In this document: piece after piece, positions 45,821-58,256 of the stretch
Numbering within the stretch: the stretch's first letter is position 1
Layout of the letters: each line of letters begins with the position of its first letter
NCBI GenBank assembly: GCA_963795085.1
Contig: CAWCFX010000003.1
Location: forward strand, 192,001-256,000
Source: an uncultured Gemmatimonadales bacterium
Lineage (GTDB): Bacteria > Gemmatimonadota > Gemmatimonadetes > Gemmatimonadales > GWC2-71-9
Direction of reading: 5' to 3'
Length of the DNA: 64,000 nt
Position numbers and translations under genes: made by a program
Notes under the pieces: model-generated
Databases searched by the model: none
What the model was told of the DNA's origin: nothing
Seen by the model: the letters and a program-made list of their open reading frames with translations, nothing else

Positions 45821-45849
45821 TTGACACTGCAACATCTCGCAAGTAACGT
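45821..45849 (+). promoter_or_regulatory. sigma70 promoter of the Crp/Fnr gene
   Basis: TTGACA-N17-TAACGT. Confidence 0.75.
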
Positions 45850-45881
45850 ATTCACACAAACTTCCGACTGTGAGGGGCTCC

Positions 45882-46559
45882 GTGGCTCTTTCTCCACTAG
45901 ATGTGCTGAATCGGGTACCACTGTTCGAGAGTCTCCCCGAGAACGAGCTGGCGCATTTCGCCGAACTGACCCGGGAGAAGACCTACCCCAAGGGCAGCGT
46001 GATTCTCTTCGAAAATGACCGCGGGGATTCACTTTTCCTGGTTGCTTCCGGCCAGGTGAAGGTGGTCCTGATCGGCGAGGACGGCCGGGAGGTCATCCTG
46101 TCGGTACTCGGACCGGGGACCTTCTTTGGCGAGATGGCGCTGATCGACGATTCCCCCCGCTCCGCCCATGTCATCGCGATGGAGGATGCGACGCTCCTGG
46201 TGCTGAGGCGGGAGGATTTTCAGCAGCGGCTGCGCACCTCCCCCGAGGTGGCGATTGGGCTGTTGAGAGAGCTGTCGCGGCGGCTTCGCCGTGCCGACGA
46301 GAAGATCGGGAGCCTGGTGTTGCTGGACGTCAACGGCCGGGTGGCCGATCTGTTGCTCCGGGCTGCGGCGGAAGAGGGGGGCGAGCTGATTCGCCGCAAA
46401 CTGACGCATCACACCATCGCCCAGATGATCGGCTCCAGCCGGGAGACCGTTTCCCGGACCATGCGGGATTTCGTGGAGCGTGGGCTCATCACGGTGACCC
46501 GCAAGGACATAACCATCACGGACCGGCCCGCCCTCTTGGCCGCCGCCGGGCGTTCGTGA
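45882..46559 (+). CDS. Crp/Fnr-family transcriptional regulator (cNMP-binding)
   Basis: FFGEMAL...PRSA phosphate-binding cassette; HTH IAQMIGSSRETVSR; no FNR-type cysteines. Confidence 0.95.
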   Translation: MALSPLDVLNRVPLFESLPENELAHFAELTREKTYPKGSVILFENDRGDSLFLVASGQVKVVLIGEDGREVILSVLGPGTFFGEMALIDDSPRSAHVIAMEDATLLVLRREDFQQRLRTSPEVAIGLLRELSRRLRRADEKIGSLVLLDVNGRVADLLLRAAAEEGGELIRRKLTHHTIAQMIGSSRETVSRTMRDFVERGLITVTRKDITITDRPALLAAAGRS

Positions 46560-46593
46560 GGACACTCACCACCCGCAAGTGACCCTGCTCACA
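46555..46593. promoter_or_regulatory. Two tandem CRP-type boxes upstream of the MBL hydrolase operon
   Basis: CGTGA-ggacac-TCACC (46555-46570) and AGTGA-ccctgc-TCACA (46578-46593). Confidence 0.65.
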
Positions 46594-46644
46594 CGATTTC
46601 CGCCCTCCCGGGGCGGCACAGATCTCGCTAGCTGAGGTAGGCAA

Positions 46645-47517
46645 GTGACCTACACAATTACCTTCTGGGGCACCCGGGGTTCGATCCCGACGCCGGGACC
46701 GCACACGGCCCGTTACGGAGGTAATACGTCCTGTGTCGCAGTGGCCGGCGGCAAGGATGAGTTGGTCATCCTGGATGCCGGCAGCGGCATCCGCCCCCTC
46801 GGGCGAGAGCTGCACCGGATCGGGAATGGCAGCGGCGGCATGAGCGCGGATATCCTGGTTTCCCATACTCACTGGGATCACATTCAGGGATTGCCGTTCT
46901 TCCAGCCGCTCAACGTGAAAGGCAACTCGGTCCGGATCTACGGCTCCGCCCAGGAGGGCGTCGGCCTGGAAAGCATCCTCGACCGGCAGATGGACCCGAT
47001 GGTGTTTCCGATCCCGCTGCGCGCGCTGGCCGCGGAGCTCACGGTCACCGAAATCGCGGGCGGGGCGTTCGAAATCGACGGGTTCACGGTGGAAGCGTTT
47101 CGCCTGCGGCACCCGGGCACCACCCTCGGCTACAAGCTGGTGCCGGTGCGCGGCGGTCAGACCATGGCGTACCTGACGGACAACGAACTGGGTCCCGGCG
47201 GGAATTACGACGTCCCCGCAGACTGGCGGCAGCAACTGGTAAGATTTCTCGACGGCGTGCATACCCTGATTCACGACGGGATGTACTCCGAGGAACTGAT
47301 GGAACAACGGGCTGGCTGGGGCCATTCGACCCCGCAGCAGGCGGTGGACCTGGCGCATGAATGCGGTGCGGAACGGCTGATCATTTTCCACCACGAGCCG
47401 GAGCACGACGACGATACGATCGACCGCCTGGTCGCCGAGACCCGGCGCGATGCGAAGCACCTGGCGCCCCGCCTCGTGGTGGAGGCCGCCAGCGAAGGGA
47501 TGCACCTCAACCTCTAG
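46645..47517 (+). CDS. MBL-fold metallo-hydrolase (RNase Z/PhnP-like, possible phosphodiesterase)
   Basis: GTRGSIP, YGGNTSC, LDAGSG, SHTHWDH, HPG, TDNE, GWGHS, FHHEP. Confidence 0.92.
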   Translation: MTYTITFWGTRGSIPTPGPHTARYGGNTSCVAVAGGKDELVILDAGSGIRPLGRELHRIGNGSGGMSADILVSHTHWDHIQGLPFFQPLNVKGNSVRIYGSAQEGVGLESILDRQMDPMVFPIPLRALAAELTVTEIAGGAFEIDGFTVEAFRLRHPGTTLGYKLVPVRGGQTMAYLTDNELGPGGNYDVPADWRQQLVRFLDGVHTLIHDGMYSEELMEQRAGWGHSTPQQAVDLAHECGAERLIIFHHEPEHDDDTIDRLVAETRRDAKHLAPRLVVEAASEGMHLNL

Positions 47518-47529
47518 CGAGGAGTGGAT

Positions 47530-48219
47530 ATGCGCGGGACCATGCTGTTGGCGTTGGCTCTGACTGCCACGATGCCGGCGCTGGCCGAGGCCCAGGACAC
47601 CCGGCCCGGCATCGCGGTGATGCCGTTCCAGAACGGTGGGTCCTACGGGCGGGACAAGGAAGATTTCGACGCGCTCCAGGTCGGGATCCCGGCCATGGTC
47701 ATGAGCGAACTCGCCCAAAACCCGGGCGCCCGGGTGGTGGACCGGAGCGACATCAACCGGATTCTGGACGAGCAGAACCTGGCCACGGATGGCCGTGTGG
47801 ATGCCTCGACCGCCGCCCGGGTGGGCCGGCTGGTGGGCGCCCGCTACATGATCATGGGCACCTTCATCGACCACTACGGCAAGATGCGGATCGACGCCCG
47901 CATTGTGGACGTGGAGACCAGTGAGATCCTCAAGGTGGTGCAGTCGGGCCCCCGCGAGCGGGACAAGCTGTTCGACATGATCAGCGAACTGTCCACCTCC
48001 ATCATGGCCAACACCAAACTGCCACCGCTTCCGGTCCAGCAGGCCCAGGCCGAGCCGCGGCGGATTCCGACGGAGGCGCTGACCTTCTACAGCCGGGCCC
48101 TGCTCTATGAGGATCGGGGGGATGCGGCCAAGGCCGAGGAGTATTACAACCGGGCCCTGGAAGTCTTCCCGACCTACGCGGAAGCCCGCGAAGGGCTGCG
48201 AAAGATCCGGCCCTCCTGA
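47530..48219 (+). CDS. Secreted CsgG/HfaB/TolB-N-like domain protein with a C-terminal TPR
   Basis: Signal peptide ALAEA-Q; IAVMPFQN, VVDRSDI..ILDEQ, AARVGRLVGA, DARIVDVET; TPR AEEYYNRALEVFPTYAEA. Confidence 0.82.
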   Translation: MRGTMLLALALTATMPALAEAQDTRPGIAVMPFQNGGSYGRDKEDFDALQVGIPAMVMSELAQNPGARVVDRSDINRILDEQNLATDGRVDASTAARVGRLVGARYMIMGTFIDHYGKMRIDARIVDVETSEILKVVQSGPRERDKLFDMISELSTSIMANTKLPPLPVQQAQAEPRRIPTEALTFYSRALLYEDRGDAAKAEEYYNRALEVFPTYAEAREGLRKIRPS

Positions 48220-48223
48220 CCTC

Positions 48224-49003
48224 GTGAGCGCCCCGATTGCCGGGATCGGGCGCTCAACGGCGCGCTGGCTCGCCCGGATGGGCGCGCTGGCGCGTTTCGC
48301 GTTTGAGGCAGTGCGGGCCATCCCCACCCTGCCCGGCGCGGGCCGCCGGGTCGCGGGCCGCATCCTGCTCGACCAGGTCCGCTTTACCGCACTCGAGGCG
48401 GTCGGCCTGGTCGTCCTGTTGAGCGGCATCTTCAGTTTCCTGGTCATCAAGATGGCGGTGCGCGAGCTGGGTAACATCGGGGCCTACGACCTGATCGGCC
48501 GCCTGATCGTAGTGATCATCGTGCGGGAACTCGGCCCTATCCTCACTGCGCTGGCGGTGCTGGGCCGGAGCGGCACCGCGATCACCGCTGAGCTGGCCAC
48601 CAATACCGTGCTCCGCGAAGTGCGGGCCCTGGAAGGCATGGGCATCGACCCCTTTCACTACCTGGTACTGCCCCGGCTGGCCGGGTGCATCATCTCGGTC
48701 ACCGTGCTCATCGTGCTCTTCGACACCGTCTCGCTGACCAGCGGCTTTCTCGCCGCCGGCGCCGAGGGCATGAGCGGCGACCGCTACTGGGGGGTGGTCC
48801 TGGCGTCGCTCACGGCCCGCGACGTCGGGGTGACCTTCGGGAAGGGAATCCTCTTCGGGTTGGTGATCGGGTTGTGGCCCAGCTATCACGGACTGGCGGT
48901 GCGCCGGGGTCCCACGGAAATCCCCCAGGCCGTCATCCGGTCCACGGTCGGGGCCATCGTGATGATCTTCGTGGTCAGCGCCCTGTTCGTGGTGGTGCAA
49001 TGA
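48224..49003 (+). CDS. MlaE/YrbE-family ABC permease
   Basis: VRELGPILTAL...GRSGTAITAELA, EVRALEGMGIDP..YLVLPR, KGILFG. Confidence 0.93.
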   Translation: MSAPIAGIGRSTARWLARMGALARFAFEAVRAIPTLPGAGRRVAGRILLDQVRFTALEAVGLVVLLSGIFSFLVIKMAVRELGNIGAYDLIGRLIVVIIVRELGPILTALAVLGRSGTAITAELATNTVLREVRALEGMGIDPFHYLVLPRLAGCIISVTVLIVLFDTVSLTSGFLAAGAEGMSGDRYWGVVLASLTARDVGVTFGKGILFGLVIGLWPSYHGLAVRRGPTEIPQAVIRSTVGAIVMIFVVSALFVVVQ

Positions 49004-49692
49004 GCGGCCCCGACCTGTCGACCGCGCCGCTGGTGTTTCAAGGCATCACCACGACCGGCAGCGCCGCCGGGATCTTCGAGCTGGAGGTGCTGCCGCACCA
49101 GACGGTGGTCCTGGTCGGGGACGAGAACAGCGGGGTCGACAGCCTCTGCGAGTTCGCGCTGGGGCTGGAAACACCGGTGGCCGGGCAGGCCCTGGTCTTC
49201 GGCACCGCCATCGGCGCCCTTCCCCGCCGGGAGCAACTCGCCTTCCGCCGGCGTTTGGGATACCTTCCTGCCGGGGATGGACTGCTCAGCAACCTGAGCC
49301 TCCGGGACAACATCCGGCTGCCTCTCCGGTTCGGCAGCAACTTCAAACCAGACGAAATCGAAGGCCGGGTGGACGTCATCCTCGCGATACTGCGGCTGCA
49401 GCGGATCGCGGGGGAGCGCCCCGCCCAGGCCAATGAAGAGCAGCGCCGCCGGGCGGCGCTGGGCCGCGCGCTGGCGTTCGACCCCGACCTGGTCCTGCTG
49501 GAACAGCCCTTCGTAGGGCTCACCGACCGGGTGTCCGCCGAGTTGCTCGAAGTGGCCCGCGGCGGCGAAACCGCCGAGGGCGCCCGCCGCACCGTGTTCA
49601 TCACCGGACAGGGAATACCGATGCTCCTTCGCACCAGAGTGGAACAGGTGGTCCAGATGGCCGACAGCCGCCGGATGCCAAGCCGGGTATGA
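49000..49692 (+). CDS. MlaF-like ABC ATP-binding-fold protein with degenerate catalytic motifs
   Basis: Scaffold retained (RRRLGY, LLSNLSLRDNI.LPL, RALAFDPDLVLL, PFVGL); Walker A reads GDENSGVD, signature ANEEQ, Walker B LLEQP. Confidence 0.85.
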   Translation: MSGPDLSTAPLVFQGITTTGSAAGIFELEVLPHQTVVLVGDENSGVDSLCEFALGLETPVAGQALVFGTAIGALPRREQLAFRRRLGYLPAGDGLLSNLSLRDNIRLPLRFGSNFKPDEIEGRVDVILAILRLQRIAGERPAQANEEQRRRAALGRALAFDPDLVLLEQPFVGLTDRVSAELLEVARGGETAEGARRTVFITGQGIPMLLRTRVEQVVQMADSRRMPSRV

Positions 49693-50636
49693 TCGGCCAG
49701 CGCATGACCGACGTGATGATCGGCGCCCTGGTCGTCGGCGCCGTAGCCGTACTGGTCGGGGCCTTCGTGTTCACCAAGGGGTGGAACAAGCAGCAGTTCG
49801 ACCTCTTCATGCGCACCGAATCGGCCCGCGACCTTACCTCCGACACCAAGGTGTTGTTGCAGTCGCTCCCGGTCGGCGAAGTCAAGGCGATTTCGCCCCA
49901 GGTGGACTCCACCAGCGGCCGGCTCCGGTTCGTCGTGCACCTGCGCATCGACGAACGGTACCAGGACGGAACCGAACTCCATCTGCCGCTGGGCACCCGG
50001 GCCGAGATCGTCCAGTCCAACGTGCTGGGCGGCGTCAGCATTGAGTTGCGCACCCCGGAGCGGGCCATCGGCCGGCTGGCGCCGGGAGACACGGTGGGCT
50101 CGGCCCGGCTCTCTTCCGGGCTCGACGCGATCGCCCAGATTGCCGACTCGCTCCGGCAGCAGATCGCCCTGGTGCTGACCGATACCCGGTCGCTGATCGA
50201 GAACCTGAATTCCACGGTGGTGATGGCCCGGCGGGAACTGCAGCTCACGGCGCCCGAGGCCCGCGCCACGATGGACGAAATCCAGGCCTCCCTGACCCAG
50301 TTGCGACCCACGTTGGCCCGGGCCGATACCCTGATGGCCACCGCGACCGGCCGGATGGACGGGGTCAGCGACTCCATCGCCGCTACCCTGTCCCAGACCC
50401 GGACCATGATCGCCCACCTGGACAGTCTCGCGGTCACCGCCACGAGCATCGCGGGAGAGAACCGGGAGGTCGTCCGCACCACGGCCGAGAACCTCTACAT
50501 CATCTCCGCGAAGCTGGAACACTTCCTCGACCAGGTCAGCCGGCGCCCGCTCCGGATGATCTATGGCGTCCGCCCGCTGGCGGACAGCGCCCGCCGACCC
50601 GCCGAAAGCGGCGGGGAGACCGACACCGCGCCATGA
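49689..50636 (+). CDS. MCE/MlaD-family protein with a long helical C-terminus
   Basis: N-terminal TM; ARDL..DTKV....LPVGEV..I; NVLGGVSIEL; coiled coil; C-terminal RRPLRMIYG. Confidence 0.88.
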   Translation: MIGQRMTDVMIGALVVGAVAVLVGAFVFTKGWNKQQFDLFMRTESARDLTSDTKVLLQSLPVGEVKAISPQVDSTSGRLRFVVHLRIDERYQDGTELHLPLGTRAEIVQSNVLGGVSIELRTPERAIGRLAPGDTVGSARLSSGLDAIAQIADSLRQQIALVLTDTRSLIENLNSTVVMARRELQLTAPEARATMDEIQASLTQLRPTLARADTLMATATGRMDGVSDSIAATLSQTRTMIAHLDSLAVTATSIAGENREVVRTTAENLYIISAKLEHFLDQVSRRPLRMIYGVRPLADSARRPAESGGETDTAP

Positions 50637-52573
50637 AATACCGCCTGTTGCACACTTCCGGCTGGGACCCCGCGGGGGTCGGTGACGCCCTCGCCGCGGA
50701 ACAGGTGGAAACCGCCCTGTTTCCGGCAGCGCTGACCCCGGCGGCCGACGGGCTCCCCACCGTGCTGATCCTGGATCCCGAGGGCCGCCGTCTGCTGCCC
50801 GCCTCGCTGCTTGAATCACTCCGGGAAAACGGCACCCCGATCGTGGCACTGGGCGCCCCCGGCGAAGCGGACGTGCCCGGAGACCTGCCGGTGGACCTGC
50901 TGAGCGGGTTCGTGAAGGCGCCGGTGCCGCCGCGTGAGCTGCTGGTGGCGCTCCGCTCGGCGTACCGCGAGGCGGTGGCCCGGCAGGAGGCTGCCCGTGT
51001 CCGGAAGGAGATCGCCACCCGGACCCGCGAGGTCACCGAACTAGCCGAAATCGGGATCAAGCTCACCACCGAGAAGAACTACAACACCCTGCTGGACCTG
51101 ATCCTGTTTCAGGCCCGCCGGATCACCCAGTCGGACGCGGGCAGCCTGTACCTGGTCGAGATGGATGAGGCCGGCGTCCGCCGGCTCCGATTCAAGCTGA
51201 CCCAGAACGACAGCCGCCCCGATATCCCGTTCGTCGAGTTCACCATGCCGATCAACCATTCCAGCCTCGCGGGGTACGCGGCGGCGGAAGGGGAGCCGCT
51301 GGTGTTCAACGACGTGTACCTCCTGCCCCCGGACGTCGCCTACTCGTTCAACCGCTCGTTCGACGAGCGATACGGCTACCGCACCCGCTCCATGCTGGTG
51401 ATTCCCATGCAGAATCACAGCGGCGAGGTGATCGGCGTGGTGCAGCTGATCAATCGGAAGCAGGACCCGGCGCACAAACTGGAGACCCCCGCCGATACCG
51501 ACCGCTACGTGCAGCCGTACAGCCCCCACCTGGTCAAGCTGGTGCGCTCGCTGGCGGGCCAGGCCGCCGTGGCGCTGGAGAACAGCCAGCTATATGCCGA
51601 GATCGAGCGGCTGTTCGAGGGGTTCGTGCGGGCCGCGGTGACCGCGATCGAGCAACGGGACCCGACGACGTCCGGTCACTCGGAGCGGGTAGCCAACCTG
51701 ACGGTGGGACTGGCCCGGGTCGTGGACCGGGTGGACCAGGGTCCCTACCGGCTGGTCCGGTTCAATACCGAGCAGATCCGGGAGCTGCGCTATGCCGGAC
51801 TGCTGCACGACTTCGGGAAGGTCGGGGTCCGGGAAAAAGTGCTGGTCAAGGAGTACAAGCTCTACCCGGCGGACCTGACCCTGATCCGGCAGCGGCACGC
51901 CTTCCTGCTGCGTACCGCCCAGTGGGAATACGAGAAGGAACGAGTCCGCTACCTGGAAGAGAAGGGAACCAGCGGCTATCCCGGGTTCATGGAAGGGCTC
52001 AAGGCGCGGTTCGCGGAGGAGCAGGCCAACCTGGACCGATTTCTCTCCCTGGTCCACGATTCCAACCGGCCGACGGTGCTGGCCGAAGGGAACTTCGAGG
52101 CGCTCAAGGAGTTTGCCGACCGCAGCTACCAGGCGATCGACGGCACCTCCCTGCCCTTTCTCACCTCCGACGAGGTACGCTACCTGAGCATCCGGCGGGG
52201 AACCCTGGACGAACTGGAGCGGGTCGAGATCGAAAGCCACGTGAATCACACGTTTAATTTCCTGCGGGACATCCCCTGGACCCGGAACCTCAGCCGGGTA
52301 CCCGATATCGCCCACGGGCACCACGAAAAGCTGGACGGCAGCGGGTACCCCCGCAAGGTGGGCGCCACGGAAATCCCGGTGCAGACCCGGATGATGACCA
52401 TCAGCGACATCTTCGACGCGCTGACCGCGAAGGACCGGCCCTACAAGCGGGCAGTGCCGACGGACCGGGCGCTCGACATCATGAGTTCGGAGGTCAAAGG
52501 CGGGATGCTGGACCCGGAACTGTTCACGATGTTCGTGGAGGCGAAAGTGTTCGAGGAACAGGCAGAAGGATGA
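50633..52573 (+). CDS. GAF + HD-GYP cyclic-dinucleotide phosphodiesterase with a degenerate N-terminal REC-like domain
   Basis: GAF (AGSLYL, GYRTRSMLVIPM, IGVVQLINR); TSGHSERV, LLHDFGKVG, HHEKLDGSGYP, DIFDALTAKDRPYK. Confidence 0.93.
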   Translation: MKYRLLHTSGWDPAGVGDALAAEQVETALFPAALTPAADGLPTVLILDPEGRRLLPASLLESLRENGTPIVALGAPGEADVPGDLPVDLLSGFVKAPVPPRELLVALRSAYREAVARQEAARVRKEIATRTREVTELAEIGIKLTTEKNYNTLLDLILFQARRITQSDAGSLYLVEMDEAGVRRLRFKLTQNDSRPDIPFVEFTMPINHSSLAGYAAAEGEPLVFNDVYLLPPDVAYSFNRSFDERYGYRTRSMLVIPMQNHSGEVIGVVQLINRKQDPAHKLETPADTDRYVQPYSPHLVKLVRSLAGQAAVALENSQLYAEIERLFEGFVRAAVTAIEQRDPTTSGHSERVANLTVGLARVVDRVDQGPYRLVRFNTEQIRELRYAGLLHDFGKVGVREKVLVKEYKLYPADLTLIRQRHAFLLRTAQWEYEKERVRYLEEKGTSGYPGFMEGLKARFAEEQANLDRFLSLVHDSNRPTVLAEGNFEALKEFADRSYQAIDGTSLPFLTSDEVRYLSIRRGTLDELERVEIESHVNHTFNFLRDIPWTRNLSRVPDIAHGHHEKLDGSGYPRKVGATEIPVQTRMMTISDIFDALTAKDRPYKRAVPTDRALDIMSSEVKGGMLDPELFTMFVEAKVFEEQAEG

Positions 52574-53804
52574 ACAGTCCGGCGGCGAGTCCCAGGTAAA
52601 CCGGCAGGATCAGGGCGATGATCTCGAGGTTCACCTGGCCGAACCCGGGGAAAATCTTGAGGAGCAGACCCGCGACCGCGACCGCCGCGACCACGACGCT
52701 GGCCCGCAGGGCACTCCGTCCCCAGCCGCCGCCTCGCCGGATCCCCGCCGGGAGCAGAACGACCAGGGGGAGTGCCAGCAGGTTCAGTTGCAGCACGTTC
52801 TCGTTGGCCCGGGCCACCAGGTGGTCAGTAAATCCCCAGAGACCCAGCAGGATCAGGCCCCCCACACCCATCAGCAGGTACCAGAAGACCCCAAAAACGG
52901 TAAACGCGGTGCGGGCACCCCGCCGGCCGATGCCCAGACGGGCCAGCAGCAGGGCCAGCCCACCCAGCAGCGTGCCCGCCAGCAGGTATACGGGAACCCA
53001 GCCGGGCGGCTCGGCCCGGAACGTGTACACGTCGCTTTCGTAGACCGTCCGTTCCTCCCGGACCAGCGGCACCGGACGCCCACCGTTCCCCGGCACGGTC
53101 ACCTCGCGCAGGCGCTCCCGTACCTCCAGGGGCAGGAACATTTCCTCCCACGCGGAGATGGGGCGGTCCACGGGGTGGCCCATGCCGGCCTCGATCCCGG
53201 TGTACATGAAGGGGTTGTTGGTGGTAAGCCGGCGGGTGTGGGACCGGAAGGTGGCACCGTCATAGACGGTATCGGTACGGCCGCGCAGCATGCCGCCCAG
53301 CAGGCGGTCCAGTGCGTCCCGTACCCGGGTGGAACAGTTGTCAAGGTAGTAGTCGTAGCGGTAGAACTTGTTCTCGTCCCGGGCATTCCATTCCAGGAAC
53401 TCCTTCATCTCCCGCCGCTTGAGGGGCAGCAGATTGAGCTCCTGGATGTACACCGACCGGTGGCGCCGGTCCCGGTAGAAGCGGATGGTCGCGTCCGCAT
53501 CGGCCACATCCAGCCAGTAGACCATCCGTCCCTGTAGAAAATTGGTGACGAAGCCGGGCGCCGCGAAGTCGAAGGTGCCGTAGTTGTAGACCAGGTCGGT
53601 GCCCCGGGCCAGGTCCCGCACCCCGATGGCATTGTGGCCGAACCGCTCCCAGATCTCCGAGCCGACGCCCATGGTCATGACGTAGATCTGCAGTTCCGAC
53701 CCCGGCTCTCCCGGCTCGCCAGAGGCATCCTGGGCGTGGCCGGAAAGCGCCGCGACCGCCGCGAGGGTGACGCCCAGCAATCCCGCGCGAACCCCCAGGT
53801 TCAC
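52524..53804 (-). CDS. DUF4105 / Lnb-like (lipoprotein N-acyltransferase-like) membrane protein
   Basis: FGHNAI, YNYGTFDF, YRYDYYLDNCSTR, MFLP; four or five C-terminal TMs. Confidence 0.85.
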   Translation of the reverse strand: MNLGVRAGLLGVTLAAVAALSGHAQDASGEPGEPGSELQIYVMTMGVGSEIWERFGHNAIGVRDLARGTDLVYNYGTFDFAAPGFVTNFLQGRMVYWLDVADADATIRFYRDRRHRSVYIQELNLLPLKRREMKEFLEWNARDENKFYRYDYYLDNCSTRVRDALDRLLGGMLRGRTDTVYDGATFRSHTRRLTTNNPFMYTGIEAGMGHPVDRPISAWEEMFLPLEVRERLREVTVPGNGGRPVPLVREERTVYESDVYTFRAEPPGWVPVYLLAGTLLGGLALLLARLGIGRRGARTAFTVFGVFWYLLMGVGGLILLGLWGFTDHLVARANENVLQLNLLALPLVVLLPAGIRRGGGWGRSALRASVVVAAVAVAGLLLKIFPGFGQVNLEIIALILPVYLGLAAGLFILLPVPRTLSPPRTS

Positions 53805-54811
53805 AGGGTCACGTCCCGGCCATCGCTGGCAGAGCGGTAGATGGCGTCCAGCACCTTGTGCAGGGTGAGATGCTCGTCGAGCTCCGGCGGCCTGGCCTCC
53901 TTGTTGATCGCCGCGATGAAATGGGCCCACTCGGCGCGAAAGGACGCGTAGAAGGCGTTCTCGCGGCCGGCCGCACCGGTCGGAGCCACGTCGGTGGGGA
54001 CGCCGTGCAACTCCTTCCAGACGTGCATCGGGTTCACGCCGGCGGTCCCCTTGCTGCCCCGCAGGCCGACACCGAAGCGCTCCCCGGCTCCCACGTGGTG
54101 CCAGGTGACGTCCACGAAGATCGAGGTACCGTTCTCGCAGACGACAAAAGCGCTCCCGGATTGCTCGACCGCGCGGTCTTTGCCCCGGGTATCGAGGTTG
54201 GCACTGACCCGGACCGGCTTGGGCGTCCCGGCCAGCCAGAGGCCAAGGTCGAGGATCGACAGCCCCAGGTCGAGCATGGCACCGCCGCCGGATTGTTCCC
54301 GCCGCTGCCGCCAGCCCAGCTGGGCCCGGCTGGGCCGGAATACGTGCCAGCTGCCCCGCACGCTTTCGATCTGGCCCAGCTCGCCATTCTGGACGAAGCT
54401 GCGGACGATCTGCACGTCGGTCCGATAGCGGTGGTTCATGCCCACCATCACGATGCGGTTGCGCTTCTCGGCGGCCTTCATGATCCGCTGGACACTGGCC
54501 GTCGAAATGGCGACCGGCTTCTCAACCAGCACATGGAGGTTGGCCGACAGGGCCGCGAGGATGTGGGCTTCGTGGAGGTGGTTGGGGGTGCAGATGACGA
54601 CGGCGTCGAGGTGCTCGAACTGGAGCAGCTCGTCGATGTCGTCGAAGGCATCGGGGATCTGAAACCGGTCGGCCAGCGCCCGAGCCTTGAGCAGGTCGCT
54701 GTCGCAGATGGCCGCGACCTCTACGCCCTTGAGCTTCTTGAGGACCGGCAGATGACCTACCTGGGTGATGGCCCCCGCCCCGACGACTCCGATCTTCAAC
54801 TGTTCGGCCAC
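53801..54811 (-). CDS. Gfo/Idh/MocA-family oxidoreductase
   Basis: GVVGAG, ICTPNHLH, HVLVEKP, GGGAMLDLG. Confidence 0.93.
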   Translation of the reverse strand: MAEQLKIGVVGAGAITQVGHLPVLKKLKGVEVAAICDSDLLKARALADRFQIPDAFDDIDELLQFEHLDAVVICTPNHLHEAHILAALSANLHVLVEKPVAISTASVQRIMKAAEKRNRIVMVGMNHRYRTDVQIVRSFVQNGELGQIESVRGSWHVFRPSRAQLGWRQRREQSGGGAMLDLGLSILDLGLWLAGTPKPVRVSANLDTRGKDRAVEQSGSAFVVCENGTSIFVDVTWHHVGAGERFGVGLRGSKGTAGVNPMHVWKELHGVPTDVAPTGAAGRENAFYASFRAEWAHFIAAINKEARPPELDEHLTLHKVLDAIYRSASDGRDVTL

Positions 54812-58240: not shown

Positions 58241-58256
58241 TGTGAACTGGATCACA
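58241..58256. promoter_or_regulatory. Perfect CRP-type box upstream of the sigma factor gene
   Basis: TGTGA-actgga-TCACA; candidate minus-strand -10 TAAGGT at 58192-58197. Confidence 0.7.

Follow-up and report, generated by a model that had tools for sequence, protein, structure and literature searches.

What does an MCE complex do when it is encoded inside a signalling operon and its ATPase appears unable to handle ATP? MCE systems are treated as lipid movers, with an ABC ATPase or PqiA/LetA-type proteins as the driving component. The question is raised by a 64,000-nucleotide stretch (the window) of contig CAWCFX010000003.1 from an uncultured Gemmatimonadales bacterium, in which a three-gene mlaE-mlaF*-mlaD cassette lies within a row of seven co-directional genes that begins with crp and ends with a GAF/HD-GYP gene, hdgyp. 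Judged from its sequence, the ATPase-fold subunit, here called MlaF*, is a conserved pseudo-ATPase under purifying selection. The seven-gene unit consists of two layers, an older crp-mbl-csgG-hdgyp core and the added cassette, and the dependence between them is one-way: the cassette was never found without hdgyp, whereas the core was found without the cassette.

A first-pass annotation made from the sequence alone had proposed the seven genes, their spacings and their domain assignments, and all were confirmed by the open reading frames (ORFs) and by Pfam. The features, in window coordinates, are as follows.

45821..45849, plus strand: putative promoter-like site before crp, read directly (TTGACA, 17 nt, weak -10 hexamer); a consensus promoter scan (at least 4 of 6 matches per hexamer) did not call it
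45870..46559, plus strand: crp, with cNMP_binding (PF00027, 100 bits) and HTH_Crp_2 (PF13545, 75 bits) domains; exact start codon uncertain
46555..46570, no strand: CRP-type box A, two mismatches, overlapping the crp stop codon
46578..46593, no strand: CRP-type box B, one mismatch to the consensus
46645..47517, plus strand: mbl, Lactamase_B_2 (PF12706, 70 bits)
47530..48219, plus strand: csgG-like gene, CsgG domain (PF03783, 58 bits) and one TPR pair
48224..49003, plus strand: mlaE-like permease gene of a divergent subfamily (PF02405, 175 bits; cut-off 22.5)
49000..49692, plus strand: mlaF*, weak ABC_tran match (39 bits), ABC nucleotide-binding-domain fold with the ATP-handling motifs lost
49689..50636, plus strand: mlaD-like gene (PF02470, 33 bits; cut-off 25)
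50633..52573, plus strand: hdgyp, GAF and HD_5 domains (PF01590, PF13487)

The intergenic gaps from crp to hdgyp were, in order, 85, 12, 4, -4, -4, and -4 nt, and the GC content was even throughout the region.

The earlier suggestion that the ATPase subunit is degenerate proved correct for every catalytic motif when compared with a canonical MlaF of the same genome, to which the motif register was checked by pairwise alignment. Among 71 full ORFs from 80 loci (the best 80 of 103 confirmed loci in a scan based on MlaF*), the Walker A Lys was never present (Val, Leu, or Ile in 70 and a gap in one), the Q-loop Gln was replaced by Ala in 71/71, the LSGG signature occurred in none and its last Gly was Glu in all 71, the H-loop His was missing throughout, and the Walker B Asp was kept in three. 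The protein is nevertheless conserved. Its predicted fold reached a predicted local distance difference test score (pLDDT) of 92 and a template modelling (TM) score of 0.83 to E. coli MlaF (6XBD, chain I) and LolD, and 58 alignment columns were at least 95% invariant across the 71 homologues. The median ratio of nonsynonymous to synonymous substitution rates, a simple NG86 estimate on GC-rich DNA, was 0.17 over 25 close pairs, with values of 0.17–0.19 for MlaE, MlaD, and HD-GYP. With 230 residues, MlaF* has no room for the MlaF-type C-terminal extension, the handshake that E. coli MlaF requires according to the accessible text of PMC7367683. The genome holds two further mlaEFD sets with complete ATPase motifs; from the ABC mechanism, pairing MlaF* with a live MlaF in a mixed dimer should leave no complete site, since MlaF* has neither catalytic residues of its own nor a signature to offer its partner. 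The close family appears narrow: a profile search of 1.84 billion representatives gave 27 matches at E 1e-30 or better, the top ones being fragments of the family itself. The ESM Atlas returned only ABC_tran clusters, mostly from Gemmatimonadota, plasmids gave just generic ABC matches, and viral contigs gave no match.

The MlaE-like permease matched solved MlaE/YrbE chains at E 1e-30 to 1e-17, was 26–30% identical to the two other MlaE proteins of the genome, and scored 123 against the NCBIfam TIGR00056 cut-off of 212, that is, below it. The MlaD-like protein has one hydrophobic segment (residues 9–27) as an N-terminal membrane anchor, one MCE domain with a pore-lining loop that varies among homologues, and a helical tail of approximately 170 residues that ends in a conserved RRPxRxxxG motif, with the Pro and Gly present in 74/74 homologues. 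In terms of Mla-type membership, an MlaE permease, an anchored MCE protein, and an adjacent subunit with the nucleotide-binding fold were all found, and the catalytic motifs were not. On this sequence evidence, the cassette lacks the ATPase motifs that define a working Mla ABC transporter and should not be classed as one.

The gene-neighbourhood survey suggested in the first-pass annotation showed that the order of the seven genes is conserved. The relatives obtained with MlaF* were all titled Gemmatimonadota, mostly Gemmatimonadales, and the order was intact in all 62 loci holding both crp and hdgyp, a count that is silent on MlaF*-free genomes because these loci were picked via MlaF*; elsewhere, the order was kept as far as the contig reaches. 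The 4-nt overlap of mlaD and hdgyp recurred in 65 of 66 loci, whereas the other junctions, with starts picked automatically, were more variable. Strong synteny was general here: prfA flanked 58 of the 80 loci, but a downstream oxidoreductase gene flanked only 36. An Lnb-like lipoprotein N-acyltransferase gene converges on hdgyp in the window (52524–53930, minus strand); it flanked just 25 of the 80 loci and is therefore not counted as a member of the unit.

In a sample of 401 genomes of the phylum, MlaF* was present in 58: 52 of 165 in family f1, 5 of 5 in family f3, and G000, with none in ten other families. Orthologues of HD-GYP occurred in 150 genomes and those of MBL in 244, each tally counting one genome flagged as unpublished (G155, family f2), on which none of the other results depends. 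Within f1, retention was nested, with mbl in 145 genomes, hdgyp in 87, and MlaF* in 52, and all 58 MlaF*-positive genomes also carried the HD-GYP orthologue. All 35 f1 genomes with HD-GYP and no MlaF* match were inspected; one contig was too short, 33 of the remaining 34 had crp-mbl-csgG-hdgyp without an intact cassette, and one had mbl-hdgyp alone. In the sister family f2, 10 of 11 loci had crp-mbl(-csgG)-hdgyp, and none had the cassette. Conversely, where crp-mbl was kept and hdgyp was lost, mlaE, mlaF*, or mlaD was retained in 0 of 19 loci (17 of 58 such f1 genomes and two from f2), and at least five separate losses of HD-GYP occurred within f1. Thus, the proposal that the seven genes form one unit holds for their tight coupling and constant order, but the unit is separable. 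Since the core occurs without MCE genes in many relatives, its CsgG-like protein is not a subunit dedicated to MCE.

On a neighbour-gene tree of 100 tips, a single gain of the cassette in the common ancestor of f1 and f3 requires 16 losses among 82 tips; approximately six of these lie within one genus on weak nodes, so that ten is the safer floor, and the position of f3 differed between trees. Three of the inspected cassette-negative f1 genomes retained scraps of the cassette, and one positive genome had frameshifts that may be read errors. The decay intermediates (L087, L131, L144, and L150) comprised a truncated mlaD, a short mlaD tail, scraps of mlaE/mlaF, and frameshifted mlaE/mlaF. In G326, a csgG with many single-base indels stands beside an intact cassette, and in G140 the E and F genes are frameshifted; both may be sequencing errors.

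In other orders of the phylum, mbl and hdgyp are direct neighbours or flank a gene for a CHASE2 adenylate cyclase, which fits a cyclic-nucleotide role for the core. At four loci from such orders (L105, L106, L108, and L122), the mbl/hdgyp orthologues flank or adjoin genes for a caspase-DUF4384 protein and a CHASE2 adenylate cyclase, and a divergent cNMP-binding PP2C phosphatase stands where crp would be. In one sister-family genome (L101:4269-6523), crp is preceded by an insertion that holds a second CsgG-domain gene and the gene of an unnamed exported protein.

Both proteins that had been proposed as enzymes have active sites that look intact. MBL is RNase Z/PhnP-like, with the HxHxDH motif and the downstream His/Asp ligands of a dimetal site in 66/66 homologues. 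Its NCBIfam matches were all below threshold, with RNase Z the best; NF041851, considered for cNMP as a substrate, scored lower, at 28 bits against a cut-off of 400. Its relatives in the Protein Data Bank (PDB) were RNase Z only. It is probably a phosphodiesterase. The HD-GYP protein consists of an N-terminal region, a GAF domain, and an HD-GYP domain with an insertion of approximately 105 residues. No Pfam family matched residues 1–145, which we read by eye as a degenerate receiver-like domain, and no membrane segment was predicted, consistent with a soluble protein. The metal ligands (H, HD, H, HH, D), the GYP motif, and RxYK were present in 67–68 of 68 homologues (RxYK in 67). Its closest solved relative is PmGH (PDB 4MCW), which it resembles in the GAF and HD-GYP domains, the metal ligands, and the RxYK guanine motif, and from which it differs in the extra N-terminal region, the long insertion, and the position of PmGH E185, which is Thr in 60 of 68 homologues and never Glu or Asp. 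In the accessible text of bioRxiv 10.1101/2021.11.05.467447, RxY[K/R] is the guanine-binding motif, and proteins without an E185 equivalent form the binuclear HD-GYP class, expected to stop at pGpG. By that criterion, the protein is a predicted binuclear c-di-GMP phosphodiesterase. The genome has 13 GGDEF matches that could supply c-di-GMP as substrate.

The CsgG-like protein is exported and has a TolB-N/LpoB/CsgG-fold domain (model pLDDT 90). By Z score, its closest folds were the FlgT-ring chain 8z5n (12.4) and TolB (12.4), followed by CsgG (11.3), PelC (10.7), LpoB (10.5), and PqiC (8.6), with a root-mean-square deviation of 2.7 over 128 aligned residues for TolB and 3.4 over 118 for PqiC. 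It is not a lipoprotein: a Cys within the first 35 residues was found in 2 of 69 homologues. The idea that it serves as the cassette's own PqiC was weakened, as the gene persists without the cassette, the lipoprotein Cys is missing, and its evolution did not speed up after cassette loss (longer branch in 5 of 12 pairs).

In Crp proteins of the cAMP type, a Thr-Ser/Asn pair in the C-helix reads the adenine, and in cyclic-nucleotide-gated (CNG) channels an Asp is linked to cGMP preference. In the Crp of this locus, the phosphate-binding cassette (Gly-Glu, Arg-Ser) and the RE..R recognition helix were intact in 41/41 homologues, and the adenine-reading pair was found in 0/41. Residues 142–143 (window 46293–46298) are Ala or Val followed by an invariant Asp143 in all 41, where actinobacterial CRP, whose 3D0S/3I54-type structures are the closest full-length solved relatives, has Thr-Asn. 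This replacement leaves the ligand of Crp uncertain, and by analogy with the channels it could shift the preference, for example, towards cGMP. The only class III cyclase of the genome is of a soluble FHA-GAF type, lies elsewhere, and looks ATP-specific by motif. Three cNMP-domain matches were found in the genome, and Crp was the only one seen with a DNA-binding helix.

CRP-type boxes had been noted before the operon. Both sit between crp and mbl, ahead of the six-gene part and not ahead of crp. In the window as a whole, such boxes were not above chance (7 found vs 11 expected), but a GTGA-N6-TCAC core at or just past the crp stop, within 110 nt, occurred in 106 of 126 related loci, compared with 0.08 in shuffles. 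The core of box A stood at the same position in 76 loci, where the TGA stop of crp contributes three of its bases, and had moved by 2–3 nt in 15 more, several of which end crp with TAG, indicating that the box itself is under selection. The left half-site of box B recurred approximately 21 nt past the crp stop in a column profile of the 126 loci. Boxes before crp were considered and rejected, as the upstream DNA was not enriched in them (2 of 121 with at most two mismatches vs approximately 5 expected). From its position, the box would govern the genes after crp, which does not point to feedback on crp transcription. Genome-wide, perfect CRP-like boxes numbered 8 against 0.17 expected; this was not taken to prove a Crp regulon, as several of the boxes fit the Rex operator. 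Three palindromes (G000:C1:1138456, C2:206371, and C6:352218) stand ahead of genes that, judged by eye, are rex, nuoA, and atpA; they are probably Rex operators. A perfect TGTGA-N6-TCACA palindrome at window 58241–58256, ahead of a sigma-70 factor gene on the minus strand (from 57270), is a possible Crp or Rex target.

For phyla beyond the Gemmatimonadota, the neighbourhoods came from one scan of metagenomes with the aligned MlaE sequences, in which 80 of at least 588 loci were kept. It showed distant mlaE genes followed by degenerate mlaF genes, and MlaE proteins with degenerate partners grouped in a single clade, separate from MlaE proteins with canonical partners (FastTree support 1.0). With 43 sequences each, the IQ-TREE ultrafast bootstrap (UFBoot) for this clade was 85 for MlaE and 99 for MlaF, on long branches for which attraction of fast sequences is possible. 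The MlaE and MlaF* trees were parallel across phyla. Approximately 19 of the kept loci were clade members from outside the Gemmatimonadota, approximately nine of them under 3 kb, and homologues were present in the named cultured Geobacterales Geomonas, Geotalea, and Trichlorobacter. Among approximately 10 informative distant loci, for which the Pfam scan covered 42 of 128 listed ORFs, three adjoined cyclic-nucleotide genes, all Geobacter-like, and four had a TPR gene after mlaD. The gene orders at the three were GAF-mlaE-mlaF*-mlaD-TPR lipoprotein-CHASE2 cyclase (L209:4480-10090), class II cNMP phosphodiesterase-mlaE-mlaF*-mlaD (L214), and FecR-CHASE2 cyclase-PilZ-phosphodiesterase-mlaE alone (L220:400-6747). 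Within the Gemmatimonadota, the closest group was a sister dead-ATPase mlaE-F-D cassette (L248–L252, L259, L260, L200, and L202), with UFBoot 96 for MlaE and 74 for MlaF. Separately, in family f10 (L253–L258), GAF-PP2C, anti-sigma-type kinase, and STAS genes stand directly before a canonical mlaEFD in 6/6 loci.

The first-pass annotation knew of no characterised system of this composition, and a literature search, with subscription journals and supplements outside its scope, found no description of one. The cassette resembles E. coli MlaFEDB (PDB 6XBD, 6XGY) in its MlaE and MCE domains, its nucleotide-binding fold, and the order mlaE-mlaF-mlaD. It also resembles the three-gene MlaEFD core of Veillonella parvula, described in the accessible part of PMC10665443, with an elongated MlaD and no MlaB or MlaC in the operon. 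In contrast to both, it lacks the ATPase motifs and the C-terminal handshake extension and is set in a Crp/HD-GYP operon, and no beta-barrel was seen at its MlaD end. The accessible main text of PMC10665443 mentions neither Gemmatimonadota nor degenerate ATPases, and its genome tables may list these loci without comment. A needle-type MCE protein with a conserved C-terminal peptide and a PqiC/CsgG/PelC-like alpha/beta neighbour is shared with P. aeruginosa PA3211-PA3214 and E. coli PqiABC, as far as the accessible text of PMC13631591 describes them; here, however, the CsgG-like neighbour has a TPR pair and no lipoprotein Cys, is closer to TolB-N than to PqiC (Z 12.4 vs 8.6), and predates the cassette. 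The mycobacterial Mce1 and Mce4 operons also lack a working ATPase of their own, sharing MceG, with Mce1N as inhibitor (accessible text of PMC13492129), whereas here the ATPase-fold gene is present, coupled, and conserved but dead, next to a single MlaE and a single MlaD. This analysis adds that the unit has a history in two layers, that dependence within it runs one way, that the Crp box lies between crp and mbl, and that a sister cassette stands alone.

ABC transporters are known to act as sensors in BceAB-BceS, PstSCAB-PhoU-PhoR, and FtsEX-EnvC, all of which keep active ATPases. None of these is known to be an MCE system or to act on an HD-GYP enzyme. The locus is like them in that a transporter chassis is proposed to govern a signalling or hydrolytic partner, and structures of BceABS and FtsEX appeared among the fold matches of MlaF*.

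With a probability of roughly 0.45, we propose that a non-pumping trans-envelope MlaE-F*-D complex tunes the HD-GYP enzyme via the pseudo-ATPase, under Crp control from an internal promoter; the arrangement suggests an envelope sensor made from a reused transporter chassis. An older Crp-controlled mbl-csgG-hdgyp operon would have acquired the three-gene cassette. MlaE2-MlaF*2-MlaD6 would still assemble, with the long MlaD tail spanning the periplasm and MlaF*, unable to bind or split ATP, serving as a docking face in the cytoplasm. The complex would change shape with lipid occupancy or on contact with the outer membrane and so tune the co-translated GAF-HD-GYP protein, taking c-di-GMP down or up. 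Crp-cAMP would turn on the six genes at a promoter in the crp-mbl gap, and MBL may act to remove the inducer. This proposal is favoured by the dead yet conserved MlaF*, the dependence on hdgyp, the mlaD-hdgyp overlap, the Geobacter-like neighbours, and the variable MlaD loop, and by the two canonical mlaEFD sets elsewhere in the genome, which can cover lipid trafficking. That the MCE module is linked to the enzymes, physically or in function, is suggested only by the nesting of the genes. A complex prediction of MlaF* (8–225) with HD-GYP (1–325) scored under the mark, gave no verdict, and was counted neither way. When 12 pairs of cassette-loss and cassette-keeping lineages were compared, the GAF domain had the longer branch after loss in 10, a hint only, as eight domains were tested; the receiver-like region and Crp did so in 8 and the other domains in 4–7.

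Several observations weigh against the sensor proposal. The main evidence against a dedicated signalling role is the sister cassette, which stands alone at 7/7 inspected loci with no cyclic-nucleotide enzyme among its scanned neighbours; these were metB with an M48 peptidase gene, a glycerol-3-phosphate acyltransferase gene, PP2C, MsbA with a lipid A acyltransferase gene, and rpsL. Approximately 7 of the 10 informative distant loci likewise had no cyclic-nucleotide neighbour, the core stands without the cassette in many lineages, and no CHASE2 cyclase was found in this genome. As the cassette and hdgyp are adjacent, one deletion suffices for their co-loss. No residue of HD-GYP, the CsgG-like protein, MBL, or Crp was relaxed in more than 2 of 14 loss lineages.

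Some of these points fit a passive, ATP-independent conduit for lipids or other hydrophobic ligands, in which MlaF* would be a structural clamp on the MlaE dimer and the cassette would merely be switched on by Crp alongside the c-di-GMP enzyme during a change of lifestyle. The sister cassette adjoins lipid genes twice (L251 and L259), and the long MlaD tail with its conserved end resembles the C-terminal peptides by which MCE proteins dock on PqiC-like rings in the accessible text of PMC13631591. PqiABC moves phospholipids passively according to the accessible part of bioRxiv 10.64898/2026.09.15.751761. We nevertheless regard such a conduit as rather unlikely, because it leaves unexplained why this sub-lineage was never found without hdgyp and why the Geobacter-like members have cyclase and phosphodiesterase neighbours; moreover, the pore-lining loop of MlaD is variable, and a PqiC-type lipoprotein is not among the genes of the operon. 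Alternatively, the motor might be borrowed: MlaF* would be a brake or placeholder that is swapped for a live MlaF from another locus, as in Mce systems with MceG and Mce1N. The two intact MlaF paralogues could supply it, and a shared ATPase with a competing inhibitor is known in Mce1/Mce4 (accessible text of PMC13492129), but the incomplete site of a mixed dimer, the low identity of MlaE to its paralogues (26–30%), and the parallel MlaE and MlaF* trees, which fit a fixed pair, make a borrowed motor improbable. We give just as little credence to a transcriptional passenger that landed once in the operon, has a job of its own, and shares only expression with the Crp output and HD-GYP. Stable synteny is general in this region (the prfA flanks), the cassette is easily lost, and its neighbours show no consistent relaxation afterwards, all as a passenger would predict; against this stand the 4-nt mlaD-hdgyp overlap, kept while other junctions vary, and the strictly nested retention of mbl, hdgyp, and MlaF*.

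A broader version of the sensor proposal, which we put forward tentatively and with some doubt, is that this cross-phylum MCE clade stopped hydrolysing ATP early and now serves as a general adaptor for signalling across the envelope, working with whichever second-messenger enzyme its lineage uses. The MlaD needle would sense the state of lipids or of the outer membrane, and the pseudo-ATPase would relay it to the attached enzyme, possibly HD-GYP in Gemmatimonadales; in Geobacter-like bacteria, that enzyme might be a CHASE2 cyclase or a class II phosphodiesterase.

Because this branch is conserved and widespread and its ATPase is wholly dead, some of the transporters annotated as Mla cannot be ATP pumps. 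Should the passive conduit prove correct, the branch would be a natural test of the purpose of ATP in MlaFEDB. If instead the sensor proposal holds, it would provide a direct route from the lipid state of the envelope to c-di-GMP or cAMP, and if the adaptor version is also true, the clade would represent a bacterial envelope receptor of a new class, with a transporter as its chassis.

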